In this document: piece by piece, positions 55,508 through 64,000 of the stretch
How the letters are laid out: each line of letters begins with the position of its first letter
How positions within the stretch are numbered: position 1 is the first letter of the stretch
Assembly (NCBI GenBank): GCA_963821395.1
Contig: CAWGDY010000042.1
Location: forward strand, 41,263 to 105,262
DNA from: Vicinamibacterales bacterium
GTDB taxonomy: Bacteria > Acidobacteriota > Vicinamibacteria > Vicinamibacterales > JAMQPK01
Direction of reading: 5' to 3'
DNA length: 64,000 bases
Translations under genes and position numbers: made by a program
The notes under the pieces: model-generated
The model's database searches: none
Told to the model about the DNA's origin: nothing
The model's input: only the letters and a program-made list of their open reading frames with translations

Positions 55508-56449
55508 ATGGATCTCCGCCAGCTCGAGATCGTCCAGGCGGTGGCCGAGACCGGGTCGTTCACCGGGGCCGGCCGGAAACTGCACGTGTCGCAATCGGCG
55601 ATCAGCCGTCAGATTCTGCTGCTCGAAGACGAGCTGAACGAGAGCATCTTTCTGAGGGTCGGCCGCCGCATCCGCATCACGCCCGCGGGCGAGTCGCTGG
55701 TGCAGTTGAGCAACCGTGTGTTCGGCGACATCAAGGAAACCATCACGGTGATCGGCGAGAGCCAGCAGGTGCTCAGCGGCACGCTGCGGCTGGCCGGCGG
55801 CATGACCGTGTGCATGTACGTGTTTCCCCAACTGCTGCAGGAATACAGACGCCAGCACTCCCACGTCGAGGTGAAGCTCATCACGGGCACCTCGCAGCGG
55901 CTGCTCCAGGAGATTCGCAGCGGTGCGGCCGACCTGGGGTTCATTACCCTGCCCGTGAACGAGTCGGAACTGGTCACGCTGCCGGCGATGGAAGAGGAGA
56001 TGCTGCTGGTGGCGCATCCCTCGCATCCGCTGGCGAAGAAGAAGCGCATTTTGCCGCAGGACCTCGCGCAGCAGCCGTTCGTGCTCTTCGAGGCGGCCTC
56101 CAACTCGAGGCGGATCGTCGATGCCTTCTTCATCAAGGAGCGCATCGAGCCGCGTATCGTCATGGAGACCGAGAACGTCGAGATTCTGAAGGCGCTCGTG
56201 CGGTCCGAGATGGGCATCACCATCATTCCGTATCAAGCCGTCGCGCGCGAGGTCCGAAGCCGGCAGCTGTTCTGCGCCAGAATCTCGGGGGTGCACCTGG
56301 TGCGGCACACCGGCTGGGTGTACCTGCGCTCGAACAAGGTTCCGCGTATGCTGGAGGAGATGTTCAAGGCATCGCAACGCATTCTGCCGAAGCTGAACCT
56401 GAGCCCGGGTGGGAAGAGTCTAAGTACTGACGCTGAATCTAAAAACTAA
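55508..56449 (+). CDS. LysR-family transcriptional regulator
   Basis: MDLRQLEIVQAVAETGSFTGAGRKLHVSQSAISRQILLLEDEL (wHTH) plus a LysR substrate-binding domain. Confidence 0.9.
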   Translation: MDLRQLEIVQAVAETGSFTGAGRKLHVSQSAISRQILLLEDELNESIFLRVGRRIRITPAGESLVQLSNRVFGDIKETITVIGESQQVLSGTLRLAGGMTVCMYVFPQLLQEYRRQHSHVEVKLITGTSQRLLQEIRSGAADLGFITLPVNESELVTLPAMEEEMLLVAHPSHPLAKKKRILPQDLAQQPFVLFEAASNSRRIVDAFFIKERIEPRIVMETENVEILKALVRSEMGITIIPYQAVAREVRSRQLFCARISGVHLVRHTGWVYLRSNKVPRMLEEMFKASQRILPKLNLSPGGKSLSTDAESKN

Positions 56450-56489
56450 AATCTAAAAACTAAAATCTAGAAACTAGAATCTAGCAACT
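56436..56489. repeat. AT-rich 14-nt tandem repeat (AATCTAAAAACTAA x ~4)
   Basis: aatctaaaaactaa aatctaaaaactaa aatctagaaactag aatctagcaacta. It begins in the last codons of the LysR gene and fills the whole 40-nt spacer up to the cysH start. Confidence 0.9.
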
Positions 56490-58599
56490 ATGAGTCGCGA
56501 CCATTACTCCCAACGATGTGGCCACGCTGGCGTTGCGGGCGGAGCCGCTTTCGGCCAGGACGTGTTGCGCCTCGCGCTGGACCGGTTCGGCCGGGGCGCC
56601 GCGGTGTCGTCGAGCTTTGGCGCCGAAGACATGGTGCTCATCGACATGCTCATGAAGATCGACGCGAAGGCGCGCATCTTCACGCTCGATACCGGCCGCC
56701 TGCCGCAGGAAACCTACAACGTCATCGACGCCACCCGGGAGAAGTACGGCGCCTCGATTGAAGTATTTTTTCCGCAGCCGGATGCCGTCCAGAACATGGT
56801 GGCCGCGCACGGGATGAACCTGTTCTATCACTCGGTCGAGAATCGCAAGTTGTGCTGCGGCGTCCGCAAGATGGAGCCGCTGCGCCGCGCGCTGTCGGGC
56901 CTCGATGCGTGGATTACCGGCCTGCGCCGCGAGCAGTCGGTGACGCGCACCGACGTGCACAAGGTCGAGTGGGACGAAGGGAATCGGCTGGTGAAAGTGA
57001 ATCCGCTGGTGGAATGGACGCACGACCAGGTGTGGGCGTACATCCGCGAGCACAACGTGCCCTACAACGCCCTGCACGACCGCGGATATCCCAGCATCGG
57101 TTGTGCACCGTGCACCAGGGCCGTCCAGCCTGGCGAGCACGAGCGGGCGGGGCGCTGGTGGTGGGAACATCCCGAGACGAAAGAGTGCGGACTGCACGTG
57201 GTCCAGTCGACGGTCATTGAACCCGAATCGCTAAGCCGGAACCGAACGGGGAACAGGAACCAGAACTGGAACCGGAACTGGAACTCGGAACCACAGCAGA
57301 TGCCCTTGTTCCCGATCTTCGTCAAGCTGGACGGACGTCCGGTCCTTCTGGTGGGCGCAGGCCCCGTCGGCGAGGCCAAGATCGGAGGACTCCTGTCCGC
57401 GGGCGCGTCGGTGACGGTTGTGGCGCCGGCGGCCACGCCGGGGATCCAGAAGCTTGCCGAAGCAGGCACGATCGCCTGGCAGCGACGCGAGTTCGCTCCG
57501 CAGGATCTGGATGGCGTCTCGCTCGTCGTCGCCGCCGTTCCCAAAGACATCGCGCGCGTGGTCTACGAAGCCGCGCGCACCCGTTCGGTGCTCGTCAATT
57601 CCGTCGACGATCCTGACAACTGCGATTTCTACTACCCGGCGGTCGTCAATCGCGGCGATTTGCAGATCGCGATCTCGACCGGCGGGCACAGTCCTGCTCT
57701 GGCCCAGCGCCTTCGCATCGAGCTCGAGCAGCAGTTCGGCCCCGAGTACGAGTCCTGGATTCGCCAGTTGGGCGAAGCGCGGCAGGGGCTGTTCGCCCGC
57801 GACATGGATCCCGACGAGCGCAAGAAGAAGCTGCATGAGATGGCCGCCGCTGCGGAGGGTCCAACGAGTACGCCGGGTCCCGGTTTGCATGGCGCTGGGA
57901 TGGTGTATCTGGTCGGCGGCGGACCGGGAGATCCGGAACTGCTCACTGTGAAGGCACTCCGCATTCTGGGACAGGCCGATGTCGTGCTTCACGACGACCT
58001 CCTCACCGACGAAATCCTCGAGCTGATTCCGCCGACCGCGCGCATCGAGTGCGTGGGCAAGCGGCACGGCGAGCGCCAGATGACCCAGGACGAAATCAAC
58101 CGCCGCCTGTGCCAGTACGGAGCGGCCGGCCAGACCGTGGTCCGGCTGAAAGGCGGCGACGGCGCCATCTTCGGCCGTGCCAGCGAGGAAATGGATGCCC
58201 TGCGAGCCGCGGACGTGCCCTTCACGATCGTGCCGGGCGTGACCGCGGCGAGCGGCGCGGCCGCGGCCGCGCGCGTGTCGCTCACCGATCGGCGGCTCGG
58301 TTCGGCGCTGGTGTTCCTGACCGCACAGCGATGCAAAGGCAATCCTCCCCCGAACTGGAAGGCTGTCGCGGCACTCGGCGGCGCCACGGCGATCTACATG
58401 CCCGGCGGTCACGAGGGGGAGTTGGCGCTTCAGCTCATCGATGCCGGGCTTGCCATCCTCGACGCCGTGTTTCGTGGTGGCGGGCGCCTCGCGGCCCGAC
58501 GAACAGGTGGTCGAAACGACGCTTGGCGAGCTGCCCGGCATTCAGCACCTGCCGCGGCCCGCGCTCCTCCTCATAGGCGTGCTGTCCGCAAAACATTAA
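56490..58599 (+). CDS. cysH/cysG: APS/PAPS reductase (CysH, Fe-S type) read through in frame into sirohaem synthase (CysG); one +1 frame break near the 3' end
   Basis: CysH part: KLCCGVRK, GCAPCTRAV, KECGLH. Linker NRTGNRNQNWNRNWNSE is encoded by a hexanucleotide repeat. CysG part starts at MPLFPIFVKLDGRPVLLVGAG (ATG 57300) and carries GGGPGDPELLT. The C terminus PCFVVAGASRPDEQVV...LLLIGVLSAKH* is in the next frame (join ~58447; TAA at 58597-58599). Confidence 0.8.
57236..57292. repeat. hexanucleotide repeat (GGAACC/GGAACT and variants)
   Basis: ccggaaccgaacggggaacaggaaccagaactggaaccggaactggaactcggaacc. Confidence 0.9.
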
Positions 58600-58630
58600 T
58601 ATTTGTTATGAATCTGTAATCAAAATTCAT

Positions 58631-58660
58631 TTGACATTATGACGGCCGGGACGCCAGAAT
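58631..58660 (+). promoter_or_regulatory. candidate promoter of the pheA-ilv leader (TTGACA-18-CAGAAT)
   Basis: Consensus -35 TTGACA at 58631-58636. Weak -10 CAGAAT at 58655-58660. An unusually AT-rich 30-nt patch lies immediately upstream. Confidence 0.35.
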
Positions 58661-58671
58661 ACCTCTCGATC

Positions 58672-58752
58672 ATGTCGCTTGGGCCCGTCCTCAGCTTCGT
58701 TGTCACCGTCGTCGTTACGGTGACCGGCACCTTCCGGATGCCGGTCGACTAG
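58672..58752 (+). CDS. candidate Val/Thr-rich leader peptide (26 aa)
   Basis: MSLGPVLSFVVTVVVTVTGTFRMPVD*. It has 8 Val and 4 Thr, including the run FVVTVVVTVT. I saw no SD, and the ATG is about 5 nt after the predicted start (near-leaderless). Confidence 0.55.
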   Translation: MSLGPVLSFVVTVVVTVTGTFRMPVD

Positions 58753-58795
58753 CTGCGGATGTATTAGCCTGAGTTTGGAAAGCGCACGAATCAAG

Positions 58796-58831
58796 GGCCA
58801 TCATCCGCAGCCAGCGGGTGATGGCCTTTTT
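58796..58831 (+). terminator. intrinsic terminator (attenuator) upstream of pheA
   Basis: 13-bp stem ggccatcatccgc / gcgggtgatggcc (58796-58808 / 58814-58826, one G-U pair), a 5-nt loop, then TTTTT at 58827-58831. Confidence 0.8.
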
Positions 58832-58872
58832 AGTTGGTGGTTGGTGTTCGTGGTAGTGGCTGAGAAAAGCTG

Positions 58873-59694
58873 ATGCGAATTGCGTATCAAGGTGAACCGG
58901 GAGCGTATAGCGAGGCCGCGGCACTGCGGTTCAGTCCGAGTGCGACGACTCTGCCTTGCACCAGCTTCGATGACGTGTTCGCCGCCGTGGACACCGGCAA
59001 GACGACCCACGGCATTCTGCCGATCGAAAACTCAATCGGCGGAAGCATCCACCGCAACTACGACCTGCTGCTCGAGCACGAGCTGCCGGTCGTGGCCGAG
59101 GTACTGCTGCAGGTGTCGCACAACCTGCTCGCGTTTCCGGGCACGAAGCTGCAGGACATCAGGAAGGTGTACTCGCATCCCCAGGGCCTGGCCCAGTGCG
59201 AGGGGTTTCTGTCGAGCCTGAAGGGCGTCGAGATCGTGGCGACCTACGACACGGCCGGCAGCGCCAAGATGATTCGCGACCAGGAGCTGAAGGACGCCGC
59301 GGCGATCGCGTCGGCGCGCGCCGCCGAGGTCTTCGGTCTCGAGTCGCTCGCCGCGGGCATCCAGGATTTCAAAGAGAACATCACGCGCTTCATCCTCATC
59401 AGCAAGGCGGCCGCCGATCCGGAGAAGGCCGACAAGACGATGATCGTGTTCACGCTGCCGAACTCGCCGGGCGCGCTGTTCAAGGCGCTGAGCGTGTTCG
59501 CGCTGCGCGACATCGACCTCACCAAGCTCGAGTCGCGTCCCGTGCGCGGCCGGGCGTTCGAGTATCTGTTCTACGCCGACATCGCGGTGCCGCGCCAGGA
59601 TCTGCAGTGCACGCGCGCGCTGGTTCACCTGGCCGAGTTTGCGAAATCGATGCGCACGCTCGGCTCGTACACCTCGTGGAAAGAGAAGAACTGA
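58873..59694 (+). CDS. pheA: prephenate dehydratase
   Basis: MRIAYQGEPGAYSEAAA...PIENSIGGSI... plus a C-terminal ACT domain (TMIVFTLPNSPGALFKAL..., ESRP). Confidence 0.9.
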   Translation: MRIAYQGEPGAYSEAAALRFSPSATTLPCTSFDDVFAAVDTGKTTHGILPIENSIGGSIHRNYDLLLEHELPVVAEVLLQVSHNLLAFPGTKLQDIRKVYSHPQGLAQCEGFLSSLKGVEIVATYDTAGSAKMIRDQELKDAAAIASARAAEVFGLESLAAGIQDFKENITRFILISKAAADPEKADKTMIVFTLPNSPGALFKALSVFALRDIDLTKLESRPVRGRAFEYLFYADIAVPRQDLQCTRALVHLAEFAKSMRTLGSYTSWKEKN

Positions 59695-61372
59695 TGTCAG
59701 ACAACCCGTTGAAACCTCGCAGCGGTGCAATTACGGATGGCCCGAGCCGAGCGCCCGCGCGCGCGATGCTGAAGGCCGTCGGCTTTACCGACGCCGATCT
59801 TGCGCAAGCCGATTATCGGCGTCGCGAATACCTGGATCGAGATCGGCCCCTGCAACTACCACCTGCGCACGCTGGCCGAGCACGTGAAGGAAGGCATGCG
59901 CCAGGCGGGCGGCACGCCGATGGAGTTCAACACGGTGTCGATCTCCGACGGCATCACGATGGGCAGCCAGGGCATGAAGGCGTCGCTCATCAGCCGCGAT
60001 CTCATCGCCGATTCGATCGAGCTCGTCGCGCGCGGCAACATGTTCGACGGCATCATCGCGCTCTCGGGCTGCGACAAGACGATTCCCGGCACGATCATGG
60101 CGCTGGCGCGCCTCGATATTCCCGGCGTGATGCTCTACGGCGGATCGATCGCGCCGGGCGAGTTTCACGGCCGGAACGATCACGATCCAGGACGTGTTCG
60201 AGGCGGTGGGTGCCCACGCGGCCGGGCGCATGTCGGACGCCGACCTGCTGATGGTCGAGAACCAGGCGTGTCCCGGCGCCGGCGCCTGCGGCGGACAGTT
60301 CACCGCGAACACGATGTCCACAGTCGGCGAGTTTCTCGGGATTTCCCCGATGGGCTTCAACGACGTGCCCGCGCTCGATCCCGACAAGGCGCGCATCGGC
60401 CGCGAAGCGGGGGCGCTCGTGATGGATCTGCTGAAGCGCAACGTGCGGCCGCGTCAGGTCATCACGCGCGACTCGATCGACAACGCGATCGCGTCGGTGG
60501 CCGCGACGGGTGGATCGACCAACGCCGTCCTGCATCTTCTCGCGATCGCCCGCGAGGCGGGCGTGGCGCTCGACATCGACGATTTCGACCGTATCAGCCG
60601 GAAGGTGCCGCTGCTCGCCGACCTGAAGCCGAGCGGCCGATTCGTGGCGACCGACATGTACAAAGCCGGGGGCGCGCGGCTGATCGCGAAGCGGCTGAAG
60701 GAGGCGGGCATTCTGAAAGGCGCCGCGCCGACCGTGACCGGGAAGACGATCGGCGAAGAAGCCGACGCGGGGTCGGAGCCGCCGGGACAGGAAGTCGTGC
60801 GTCCGCTCTCGAATCCGATGAGCCCGAACGGCGGCCTCGCCATTCTTCGCGGCAACCTCGCGCCCGAGGGGGCCGTCGTGAAGATCGCCGGCAAGAAGGT
60901 GCTGACCTTCACGGGCACGGCGCGCGTGTTCGACAACGAAGAGGCGGCGTTCGAAGCCGTTGACAAGAACCGGATCAAGCCCGGGGACGTGCTCGTCATT
61001 CGCTACGAAGGGCCGAAGGGCGGTCCCGGCATGCGCGAGATGCTGGCGGTGACCGGTGCGCTGCAGGGGCAGGGGCTCGGCGAGCAGGTCGCGCTCTTGA
61101 CCGATGGCCGGTTCTCCGGCGCGACGCACGGATTGATGGCCGGCCACGTGGCGCCCGAAGCGGCAGCCGGCGGCCCGATTGCGGCGGTGCGCGATGGCGA
61201 CACGATCGTGTTCGACATCCCGAACCGTCAGTTGCGTGTCGAGTTGACGGACGCGGAAATCTCGAAACGGATGTCAGGCTGGACGGCGCCGAAGCCGCAA
61301 TTCGAAACAGGCGTGATGGCGAAATACGCGAAGCTGGTGTCGTCGGCGTCGTCTGGGTGCGTAACGAATTAG
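59694..61372 (+). CDS. ilvD: dihydroxy-acid dehydratase, two +1 frame breaks as assembled
   Basis: The ATG overlaps the pheA TGA by 1 nt. [36 protein letters not shown] / [20 protein letters not shown]...CDKTIPG / ...QDVFEAVG...[16 protein letters not shown]...[11 protein letters not shown]. Frame joins at ~59805 and ~60180. Confidence 0.9.
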
Positions 61373-61493
61373 ATAGCTAGTAGCTGGTCAGCTAAGTAGC
61401 GGAAGAGATCACTTCAAGATCCGGAGTGTAAGCGACGGCAGACGCGTGGACGGTGAACGGCCCCACGCGGACTAAACCGGAGCAGGACATGCG

Positions 61494-63214
61494 ATGAAAC
61501 GCACAGGTGCACAGATCGTTTGGGAATGTCTCGTCCGCCAGGGAGTGACCGACGTCTTCGGCTATCCCGGCGGCGCGATTCTGCCCGACGTACGACGCGA
61601 TGCTGGACTATCCAATCCGCCACGTCCTCGTGCGCCACGAGCAGGGCGCGACGCACATGGCCGACGGCTACGCGCGTGCCAGCGGCAAGGTCGGCGTCGC
61701 CATCGCGACGTCCGGCCCCGGCGCGACGAACATGGTGACGGGCATCGCGACGGCGATGATGGACAGCTCGCCCATCGTCTGCATCACCGGTCAGGTGGGC
61801 AGCAAGCTGGTCGGCTCTGATGCGTTCCAGGAATCCGACGTCACGGGCGTCACGCTGCCGATTACCAAGCACAACTATCTGGTGACGCGCGCCGACGAGA
61901 TCGCGCCGACCTTCCGCGAGGCCTTCGAGATCGCCGCGTCGGGACGGCCGGGCCCGGTGCACATCGACATCACCAAGGACGCACAGCAGTCGTCGTGCGA
62001 GTTCGACTGGGACGCCGCGGTGCCGAAGAAGCCGGAGTTCCGTCCCGACTGGAGCGCGCGGCCCGAAGAGTTCCAGCGCGCGCTCGAGCTCATCAACGCC
62101 GCCGAGCGGCCGTTGATTCTCGCCGGGCACGGCATCATGCTGTCGGGCGCGATGGACGTCGTGCGGGCGTTCGCCGAGAAGGCCAATATCCCGGTGTCGC
62201 AGACGCTGCTCGGCATCGGCGGCTTCCCGGCGTCGCATCCCGCTGAGCCTCGGCATGATGGGCATGCACGGCGAAGCGTGGGTGAACTCGGCGATTCAGC
62301 AGGCCGACCTGCTGCTCGCCTTCGGCATGCGCTTCGACGATCGCGTCACCGGCAACCTGAAGACCTACGCGCTGAACGCGAAGAAGATTCACTTCGACAT
62401 CGACGCCGCGGAGATCAACAAGAACGTTCGTGTCGAGGTCGGCATCGTCGGCGATCTGAAGGAATCGCTCGAAGTGCTGATGCCCGGCCTCAAGGCCGGC
62501 GATCGCGCCAAGTGGATCGCGCATATCGGCGAGCTCAAGGGCGATTCGGCGGTCCGCGACATCCAGAATCTGCCGGACAGCGGGCATCTGTACGCCGCGC
62601 ACGTCATCAACGATCTGTGGCGCGCCACCCACGGCGACGCCATCATCGTGACCGACGTCGGCCAGCACCAGATGTGGGAGGCGCAGTACTACCATCACGA
62701 CAAGCCGCGCTCGCTCATCACCTCGGGCGGTCTCGGCACGATGGGCTTCGCGCTGCCGGCGGCGATCGGCGCCAAGCTCGCCTGCCCGGACAAGGAAGTG
62801 TGGGTCGTGGTCGGCGACGGCGGCTTCCAGATGACGATGTGCGAGCTCGCGACGATCGTGCAGGAGCAGATCGACATCAACGTGGCGATCATCAACAACG
62901 GCTACCTGGGCATGGTGCGCCAGTGGCAGGAGTTCTTCTACGAGCGCCGGTACGCGGCGACGCCGCTCCTGAATCCGAACTTTCAGAAGCTGGCGGAAGC
63001 GTTCGGATTGCCGGCGCAGACGGTCACCAAACGCGCCGACGTCGCTCCGGCAGTCGAGGCCGCTCGCAAGAATCGCCAGACGGTGGTCATCGACTTCCAG
63101 GTGGAGCAGGAAGACACCGTGTATCCGATGGTGCCGGCGGGCGCGGATCTCGACGCGATGATTCGCCGGCCGAGCCCGTCGCCGATTATCGAGACCGGAG
63201 CGGACGTGCTCTAA
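61494..63214 (+). CDS. ilvB: acetolactate synthase large subunit, two +1 frame breaks as assembled
   Basis: [31 protein letters not shown] / [29 protein letters not shown]... / [14 protein letters not shown]...[16 protein letters not shown]...GDGGFQM. Frame joins at ~61590 and ~62240. Confidence 0.9.
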
Positions 63215-63221
63215 GAAATTC

Positions 63222-63259
63222 CGACGCTAGAGGCGCAGAAGACGCAGAGCAATTCTTTT
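63222..63259. repeat. family B half element (left arm only)
   Basis: ccgacgctagaggcgcagaagacgcagagcaattctttt, starting 8 nt after the ilvB stop. Confidence 0.6.
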
Positions 63260-63316
63260 CAAGAGACTAACTGCTGCGACTACTGCGGCTACTCGGCTAC
63301 AAACGGAGGAAGCATC

Positions 63317-63862
63317 ATGATTACGACATTTGCCATCCACGTAGAGAACAAACCCGGCGTGCTGACGCGCGTGTCGTCGCTGTTCCGGCGGCGCGCGTTC
63401 AACATCGAGTCGCTGACCGTCGGCCACACCGATCGGCCGGGCGTGTCGCGCATGACGATCGTCGTCGATACCGACGAGATCGGCGCGCGGCGTCTCGAGG
63501 CGCATCTCTACAAGCTCGTCAACGTGCTGCGCGTCGAGAACATCACGGCCGCCCCGGCGGTGTTCCGCGATCTCGCCATGATCAAGGTGGCGGCGACCGC
63601 CGAGTCGCGCACGCACATCATGCAGCTGGTCGATGTCTTCCGCGCGCGCGTGGTGGACGTCGCGCCGGACTCGCTCATCATCGAAATCACGGGCACCGAG
63701 GATAAGATCGACGGCTTGCTCGAGGTGCTGCGGCCGTACGGCGTGCTCGAAATGGTCCGCACCGGCCGGGTGGCGATGTCGCGCGGGCTGCGCACGGCGA
63801 CCAGCACCGGCGAAGGTCTTCGGATCGCGGAAGACGATCACAACGTGTTTCACTCCGTTTAG
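63317..63862 (+). CDS. ilvN: acetolactate synthase small (regulatory) subunit
   Basis: MITTFAIHVENKPGVLTRVSSLFRRRAFNIESLTVGHTD... (ACT domain) plus the C-terminal ALS_ss_C-like domain. Confidence 0.9.
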   Translation: MITTFAIHVENKPGVLTRVSSLFRRRAFNIESLTVGHTDRPGVSRMTIVVDTDEIGARRLEAHLYKLVNVLRVENITAAPAVFRDLAMIKVAATAESRTHIMQLVDVFRARVVDVAPDSLIIEITGTEDKIDGLLEVLRPYGVLEMVRTGRVAMSRGLRTATSTGEGLRIAEDDHNVFHSV

Positions 63863-63866
63863 TACT

Positions 63867-63944
63867 TTGACGCAGAGCCGCAGAGCCGCAGAGAAATGTC
63901 TGTTTCGAAGACCGATCCTCTGCGCCTTTGCGCCTCTGCGTCGA
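63867..63944. repeat. REP-like palindromic element, family B, copy 5
   Basis: ttgacgcagagccgcagagccgcagag ... cctctgcgcctttgcgcctctgcgtcga, between ilvN and ilvC. Confidence 0.85.
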
Positions 63945-63964
63945 GGTAACGTAAAGGACATTCA

Positions 63965-64000
63965 ATGGCAGCAAAGATGTATTACGACAACGATGCAGAT
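63965..64000 (+). CDS. ilvC: ketol-acid reductoisomerase, first 12 codons (3' end outside window)
   Basis: MAAKMYYDNDAD is a typical IlvC N terminus, and the operon context fits (ilvB-ilvN-ilvC). Confidence 0.65.
   Translation, partial: MAAKMYYDNDAD

Follow-up and report, generated by a model that had tools for sequence, protein, structure and literature searches.

The window analysed here, a stretch of 64 kb from a Vicinamibacterales metagenome-assembled genome (MAG; Acidobacteriota, subdivision 6) and with a G+C content of 61-67%, carries the genes pheA-ilvD-ilvB-ilvN-ilvC, and ahead of pheA a leader in which a promoter, a short valine-rich open reading frame (ORF), several alternative RNA pairings and an intrinsic terminator follow one another (Table 1). 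This leader is very probably a ribosome-mediated (leader-peptide) transcription attenuator of the operon, judged from its sequence and from those of its relatives. An original prediction from the letters of the window had already claimed an enterobacterial-style attenuator here, and the pieces it named (a TTGACA hexamer, a 26-codon ORF, the segment gctgcggatg with its 10-nt complement, and a 13-bp stem followed by five Ts) are all found where it placed them. That they act together as claimed is now supported by covariation, by the ORF-like evolution of the mini-ORF, by the position of its stop codon and by the match between leader codons and downstream operon.

The operon as predicted stands for its first four genes, each recognised through Pfam, and the fifth, presumed from its N-terminal motif to be ilvC, is present as a start only. 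The PheA of the window is identical to one protein of the public collection, and its nearest relatives there are labelled Acidobacteria. The ATG of ilvD overlaps the TGA stop codon of pheA in the sequence TGATG at 59692-59696, and this overlap indicates that the two genes are probably translationally coupled; the true start of ilvD is at 59694, where the ORF list had given a TTG at 59800. When set against a 96% identical metagenome contig (L089) the window shows insertions of one base at 58455, 59802, 60177, 61587 and 62242, which disrupt the frames of ilvD, ilvB and the 3' part of the upstream cysG, and which are most likely assembly or sequencing errors and not signs of pseudogenes. By the same comparison none of them falls within 58455-58833 and the leader itself is free of indels, which means that its ORF did not arise as an artefact of assembly.

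Table 1. Features of the leader and of the genes that follow it, in window coordinates.
Feature	Start	End	Strand	Description	Basis or remark
AT-rich palindrome	58608	58630	+	ATGAAT-N11-ATTCAT; adjoins the -35 hexamer	read from sequence
Candidate sigma-70-type promoter	58631	58660	+	-35 TTGACA 58631-58636, 18-nt spacer, -10 CAGAAT 58655-58660	promoter scan
Leader mini-ORF	58672	58752	+	MSLGPVLSFVVTVVVTVTGTFRMPVD; 26 codons and TAG (58750-58752)	8 Val, 4 Thr
Region 1 (putative anti-antiterminator)	58686	58696	+	CGTCC-T-CAGCT; pairs with 58751-58761	minimum-free-energy (MFE) fold; RNAalifold clade consensus
Regulatory codon run	58699	58725	+	V V T V V V T V T	codons 10-18
Hairpin hp1	58702	58724	+	GTCACCGT, loop CGTCGTT, ACGGTGAC	-10.8 kcal/mol; in the Val/Thr run
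Hairpin hp2	58723	58745	+	ACCGGCA...TGCCGGT	about -18 kcal/mol; inside the ORF
Region 2 (antiterminator 5' strand)	58752	58769	+	GCTGCGGATG (58752-58761) and GCC (58767-58769)	
Intrinsic terminator (regions 3 and 4)	58796	58831	+	GGCCATCATCCGC 58796-58808, loop AGCCA, GCGGGTGATGGCC 58814-58826, T5 58827-58831	
pheA	58873	59694	+	prephenate dehydratase with ACT domain	Pfam PF00800, PF01842
ilvD	59694	61372	+	dihydroxy-acid dehydratase	Pfam; frame broken by single-base insertions at 59802, 60177
ilvB	61494	63214	+	acetolactate synthase large subunit	Pfam; frame broken by insertions at 61587, 62242
ilvN	63317	63862	+	acetolactate synthase small subunit	Pfam PF22629, PF10369
ilvC start (presumed)	63966	64000	+	MAAKMYYDNDAD...	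window end cuts the gene after 12 codons

The mini-ORF begins 11 nt past the -10 hexamer, with a predicted 5' untranslated region (UTR) of about 3-5 nt and no Shine-Dalgarno site, much as the original prediction had it (about 5 nt). Another ATG, at 58639 and in frame with the leader ORF, sits between the -35 and -10 hexamers and is missing in relatives, for which reason the leader is taken to start at 58672; the 37-codon ORF that would run from 58639 was rejected, its start codon being inside the promoter and not conserved. Within the ORF a Phe codon (codon 9, 58696-58698) directly precedes the run of Val and Thr codons, and the Val run ends 30 nt 5' of region 2, the first base of which is the last base of the leader stop codon.

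Relatives were collected in two ways. A genome scan based on PheA alignments gave 80 loci, the nearest a Vicinamibacterales MAG at 99% identity and the first 64 mostly Vicinamibacterales, Vicinamibacteria or Acidobacteriota 'gp6', and a search of metagenomes for the terminator sequence yielded 49, 32 of them with pheA downstream and with Val-rich leaders where the upstream sequence suffices. Together these place the module before pheA at 28 genome and 32 metagenome loci. The original prediction looked to relatives for Val-rich mini-ORFs and paired complementarity upstream of pheA, and both proved to be conserved. Across 28 loci there is an ORF of 13-50 codons, at nearly all of them with its ATG 6-11 nt after a -10-like hexamer, which leaves no room for a Shine-Dalgarno site. 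Valine makes up 19% of the family leader ORFs as against 8.4% of the proteins of the window and 2.7-5.5% of the other two frames; the enrichment is 2.3-fold for Val, 1.8-fold for Phe and 1.7-fold for Thr and is confined to the ORF frame. Peptide sequence and length vary widely between clades, and what is common to them are the Val-rich runs. The switch may sense Phe too, since most leaders have a Phe codon beside the Val run.

Within the window's own clade (18 sequences) the start of TTGACA lies 40-41 nt from the ATG throughout, the ATG is 39, 42 or 45 nt from hp1 and hp1 is 38 or 47 nt from region 2, and every indel within the leader ORF is a multiple of three, so that the frame is kept. At two loci (L006 and L007) the core peptide TVVVTVT is preserved with different codons, and there the arms of hp1 are swapped (ACGGU...ACCGU), a change both synonymous and compensatory. 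We infer from such patterns that the leader ORF would be translated. Its stop codon also seems well placed: at 26 of the 28 loci the part of the whole leader that best complements the terminator arm overlaps the stop codon or lies no more than 13 nt away from it. Codons ending in U are commoner in the leader ORFs (26 loci) than in the genes of the window, GTT at 18% against 8%, TTT at 56% against 18% and ATT at 44% against 22%, a bias that could be a rare-codon sensitisation or could reflect the lower G+C of non-coding DNA.

The RNA of the whole leader folds more stably than shuffled versions of it (z = -5.7). The 13-bp stem of the terminator is extendable to 16 bp from 58793, its hairpin is computed at -25.5 kcal/mol and 41 nt separate the T run from the start of pheA. 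A simple terminator scan did not report this hairpin (58796-58826) and folding did, probably because two to three A-U or G-U pairs extend the stem into the T run. No other part of the leader complements the terminator arm as well as region 2 does, and the exact reverse complement of the main segment of region 2 lies at 58802-58811 within that arm; over both strands of the window this segment has three matches where 0.37 are expected by chance. In the MFE fold of the full RNA (58668-58831) region 1 pairs with region 2 so as to enclose hp1 and hp2, and the terminator is formed too; RNAalifold on the clade recovers all four of these helices. When the nascent RNA is taken only to 58813 it folds as the antiterminator, at -27.4 kcal/mol for 58750-58813. 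For hp2 one compensatory change of C-G to G-C is seen (L095 and L118), and locus L006 has, as read from its sequence, a structurally equivalent hairpin of other sequence. A role of hp2 as an RNA-polymerase pause hairpin is possible.

A near-same terminator sequence lies upstream of pheA in many of the related loci, and its pairing and that of the antiterminator were examined in a structure alignment of 27 instances running from region 2 through the T run. The helices of the window's clade barely vary, with hp1 and hp2 strongly conserved there, and so covariation is uninformative within the clade and the informative signal is that of the wider family. In the terminator helix 92.5% of cells are paired and seven pairs show double changes; in the helix of region 2 with the terminator 5' arm 70% are paired and eight pairs show double changes, while slid registers of the same two strands pair at 21-50% only. 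Three-way covariation is seen, as with GCGGATG / CATCCGC and GCGAATG / CATTCGC, and further with GGATAACGGCC / GGCCGTTATCC and CGAGTGACGGC / GCCGTCACTCG. A covariance model built from the alignment (R1) places the motif immediately before pheA at 31 of the 80 loci of the genome scan. Within the window its sole credible match is 58746-58831 (71.8 bits), and no second copy of the cassette was found by it in the 64 kb.

The module also keeps company with particular genes. The order pheA-ilvD-ilvB occurs at 39 of the 80 related genome loci, and so a prephenate dehydratase gene at the head of a branched-chain operon, which the original prediction had taken for an oddity, is common in these relatives. 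At loci with pheA followed by ilvD or ilvB the module is present in 28 of 39, versus one of 41 where neither follows (Fisher p = 1.5e-11). The gene upstream of the module differs between clades, and so the module travels with pheA-ilv. It is absent from L053, a MAG of an uncultured Luteitalea sp., and from the similar loci L056, L058 and L062. By its conservation the arrangement of the leader elements can be judged far beyond chance.

The candidate promoter is the only promoter-like site in 56000-64000; shuffled sequences average 1.1 such sites, and so this alone is not significant. In 16 distinct leaders of the window's clade TTGACATTATG is conserved, as is most of the -10 hexamer, with four of its six positions invariant. 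The palindrome that adjoins it has in other clades a homologous AT-rich element (TTATAATC..GTAAAGATTATCAATTTGAC) upstream of TTGAC with covarying half-sites, examples being L008, L021, L027, L030 and L049, and this element is retained even at loci without the attenuator. It may be an UP element or else, as a T-N11-A (LysR) type of site, be bound by a transcription factor, and if it is a regulator site there would be two layers of control over the operon. At two loci (L021 and L027) the same promoter is present and the attenuator is missing, and the ATG of pheA, 11 nt after TGTAAT, occupies the position that the leader ATG has elsewhere, which suggests that in these species pheA itself may be nearly leaderless. 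At four others (L008, L014, L030 and L061) pheA-ilvD-ilvB has no terminator ahead of it, and a similar promoter is followed by some 100 nt of conserved, GC-rich 5' sequence; this may be a different leader.

Leader codon content follows operon content when the cassette (...GGATGATGT(A/G)... plus GGCCATCATCCGCAG-loop-GGGTGATGGCC) is met in other settings. The sole module-bearing locus without ilv genes after pheA (L015) has the leader MFGRFGFFSGWSSRLTG, with four Phe codons and no Val. On the same or a closely similar cassette six metagenome loci (L082, L085, L105, L115, L126 and L127) have leaders rich in Thr and Ile; in one of these leaders, VSISTITTITTTSITSITGEGRCG, the GGA-TGA of region 2 contains the stop codon. 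At the loci with downstream sequence available (all but L082) the next gene encodes an aspartokinase-homoserine dehydrogenase, its nearest named relatives being of the Acidobacteriota and Vicinamibacterales, and in L115, L126 and L127 a threonine dehydratase gene comes after it (thrA-ilvA). A MAG contig (L131, 2546-2630) has the same layout with the leader MFTTSRATLITITCTCITTPHGASSG. An alternative, His-rich frame of the L085, L126 and L127 leaders was rejected, as L082 lacks it and the genes downstream are thrA-ilvA. The cassette is also seen before a gene for a homoserine dehydrogenase, where the ORF is Met-rich (MRTEMAMGMRG), and before one for an AMP-binding enzyme, where the ORF is Leu-rich (LALLLGILLLGLGLLLG), some copies follow Ile/Val/Leu-rich ORFs, and one directly precedes ilvD (L107); the loci of these further cassettes are L111; L084, L097 and L106; L086, L108 and L124; L104; and L107. 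The cassette thus appears, as far as these sequences go, to be reused with different leader codons before different amino-acid operons. A tracking of the operon by leader codons is predicted by a translating-ribosome sensor and not by a ligand or protein sensor.

The mechanism proposed is then a classical one. Transcription would start a few bases upstream of the ATG at 58672, and a ribosome would load on the leaderless or nearly leaderless RNA and translate the 26 codons before the polymerase has left the leader. With an ample supply of charged tRNA-Val (and probably of tRNA-Phe, tRNA-Thr and tRNA-Ile too) the ribosome would reach the TAG at 58750; with that codon in its A site its footprint, roughly 58735-58764, would cover all of the main part of region 2 (58752-58761), and so the terminator hairpin with its U5 would form and transcription stop about 41 nt short of pheA. 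Under a shortage of charged tRNA-Val the ribosome would stall in codons 10-17 (58699-58722), and for a stall at the Val codons 10-15 the footprint, about 58684-58730, would take in region 1 and hp1, these being covered or disrupted and region 2 left free to pair with the terminator 5' arm as it emerges, so that the polymerase reads into pheA-ilv. Without any translation region 1 would pair with region 2 and the terminator form. Region 1, added here to the earlier scheme, would by these models complete the classical four-region layout. The transcription start, the stalling, the kinetic choice of structure and the identity of the sensed amino acids are what we infer; the features by which the attenuator class is known, a codon-enriched short ORF, a terminator, a mutually exclusive antiterminator and the geometry of stop codon and region 2, are each found in the leader.

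Several points weigh against so simple a scheme. The equilibrium fold of the full RNA keeps the terminator, also when the positions that a ribosome on the Val run would cover are masked, and a purely thermodynamic switch was rejected for this reason. As the antiterminator does not win at equilibrium on the full RNA, the switch must be kinetic and co-transcriptional, and read-through would on these models depend on kinetic competition. The nascent RNA without a ribosome already has the antiterminator as its computed minimum-energy fold, and therefore the role of region 1 is uncertain. In the clade 85% of cells of the region 1 to region 2 helix are paired, without compensatory changes, and family-wide the sequestration of region 2 by upstream sequence is 0.70 versus 0.63 in shuffles, with 20 of 26 loci above their shuffles (sign test p = 0.005) and no single locus significant; region 1 is the least secure element. 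The conserved motif GGATGATGTAG has stop codons in two frames, and so the proximity of stop codon and region 2 is partly built in. The Val/Thr pattern could be partly forced by hp1, as ACCGU and ACGGU each encode Thr-Val and are complementary to one another. Lastly, with a 5' UTR of 3-5 nt the RNA of the window is probably not strictly leaderless.

On the upstream side of the leader a single ORF (56490-58619) has a PAPS-reductase (CysH) domain fused with siroheme-synthase (CysG) domains, a linker rich in Asn, Arg and Trp lying between them, and is itself preceded by a gene for a LysR-family regulator (55508-56449). On the downstream side the spacer between ilvN and ilvC (63863-63948) contains CGCAGAGC three times in tandem and CCTCTGCG three times, the two sets forming an inverted repeat whose arms are 31 nt long; near pheA at L018, L035 and L046 there are short tandem repeats too, of other sequences.

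Quite what selects between the two structures is not named by the structures themselves, as the covariation supports the pairings and not the sensor, and the switch could in principle be real and yet be set by an RNA-binding protein, a small ligand or a tRNA, with the mini-ORF incidental. The strong conservation of hp1 and hp2 in the clade could even mark a protein-binding site. We consider this improbable. Between promoter and region 2 no sequence or structure is conserved across clades, where the shared features are only an ATG at the promoter, a frame of 13-50 codons and codons rich in Val, Phe, Ile and Thr; the indels keep the frame; and a codon content that changes with the regulated operon is unexplained by such a sensor. 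A search of the whole window with Rfam 15 at gathering thresholds gave no match to any family, be it leader, riboswitch or T-box, and relaxed to E <= 10 on 58550-58900 it gave only three chance-level matches, all on the minus strand and none a riboswitch or T-box.

Very improbable is that 58631-58831 is an independent unit, a gene for a small hydrophobic peptide or a small RNA, with pheA-ilv transcribed from a separate promoter. The stretch does have its own promoter-like site and a strong terminator, and a short transcript is expected under either model. However, the distance from T run to pheA ATG, 41 nt here, is 0-19 nt in L001-L005 and leaves no room for a promoter, and the promoter scan has no second promoter-like site before pheA, while in L021 and L027 the same promoter stands directly before that gene. 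Nor are the length and sequence of the peptide conserved across clades, unlike those of a functional small protein, and the conserved antiterminator pairing would be left unexplained. That the hairpin is the plain terminator of the cysH-cysG gene, downstream of which it lies on the same strand, is scarcely credible, given that it is some 200 nt past the cysG coding end and downstream of a conserved promoter, that other clades have a different upstream gene with the module still attached to pheA, and that module presence correlates with the ilv genes downstream.

Attenuation by a translated leader being thus preferred, a wider reading of the cassette copies can be set beside it, for and against which the evidence seems evenly poised: Vicinamibacteria may use one sequence-conserved terminator/antiterminator cassette as a portable platform, coupled to leaderless mini-ORFs that differ in codon content and re-targeted by duplication into an amino-acid attenuation regulon, in a phylum without described leader-peptide control. 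Such a regulon would cover, with the same even balance, pheA-ilvDBNC (Val and Phe, Thr codons), pheA alone (Phe), thrA-ilvA (Thr, Ile), the AMP-binding enzyme gene (Leu) and possibly hom (Met). The presence of both Val and Phe codons in the leader would account for the joining of pheA to an ilv operon.

Vicinamibacteria (Acidobacteria subdivision 6) are common in soil and rarely cultured, and to our knowledge almost nothing is known of their gene regulation; the leader offers for this group a concrete and widely conserved candidate mechanism. The mechanism is a textbook one, and what is of value is that it extends to a new phylum and that the cassette is reused, and not a new principle; the attenuator is a lineage-specific new case of a known class of regulator. 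With the alignment and the covariance model as a seed, a new RNA family could be defined and Acidobacteria MAGs could be better annotated. A literature search found no description of leader-peptide attenuation in Acidobacteria, its coverage being incomplete and an earlier mention possible.

In the attenuators of enterobacteria (ilvGMEDA, ilvBN, thr, pheA, trp, his, leu) pairings 1:2 and 3:4 give termination and 2:3 gives read-through. The leaders described here have the same four-region logic, use codons of the end products and are multivalent as textbook examples are, and the Thr/Ile-rich leader before thrA-ilvA resembles the textbook thrL of Escherichia coli in composition. In contrast to enterobacterial leaders, which by textbook accounts have a Shine-Dalgarno site and a 5' UTR, those here are predicted to begin at or near the transcript 5' end; pheA is fused to ilv, and a near-identical terminator/antiterminator is common to different operons. 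The leaderless short-ORF attenuators of mycobacteria and streptomycetes are reported to be likewise sensors upstream of biosynthetic operons, in a different phylum and with different amino acids and operons. Leaderless initiation is plausible in Acidobacteria too, because a computational survey puts leaderless genes at 10-19% of the genes of three Acidobacteria genomes (PMC3160421).

A leaderless leader peptide, counted by the original prediction as an oddity, has a tested precedent in the ilvBNC operon of Corynebacterium glutamicum, for which the comparison draws on PMC11857589 (citing Morbach et al. 2000 and Narunsky et al. 2023). There, by that account, the IlvL peptide (MTIIRLVVVTARRLP) is encoded by a Val-rich mini-ORF before the acetolactate synthase genes, as here, with 15 codons, an ATG one nucleotide after the transcription start and no ribosome-binding site; of its three functional hairpins (anti-antiterminator, antiterminator, terminator) the last is conserved best, and a short terminated transcript is reported. 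The Corynebacterium element has, according to the same text, been tested by mutation, whereas that of the Vicinamibacterales is a prediction from sequence. The likeness is one of mechanism and architecture only, between Actinomycetota and Acidobacteriota, and there are differences: the first regulated gene is ilvB in Corynebacterium and pheA then ilvD here; the leader here is longer than IlvL (26 codons, 13-50 in the family) and has Thr and Phe codons too; and its stop codon touches or lies inside the antiterminator strand. The near-leaderless IlvL of Corynebacterium ilvBNC is nonetheless the closest known analogue, and the leader described here suggests that leaderless mini-ORFs can support classical attenuation beyond the Actinobacteria too.

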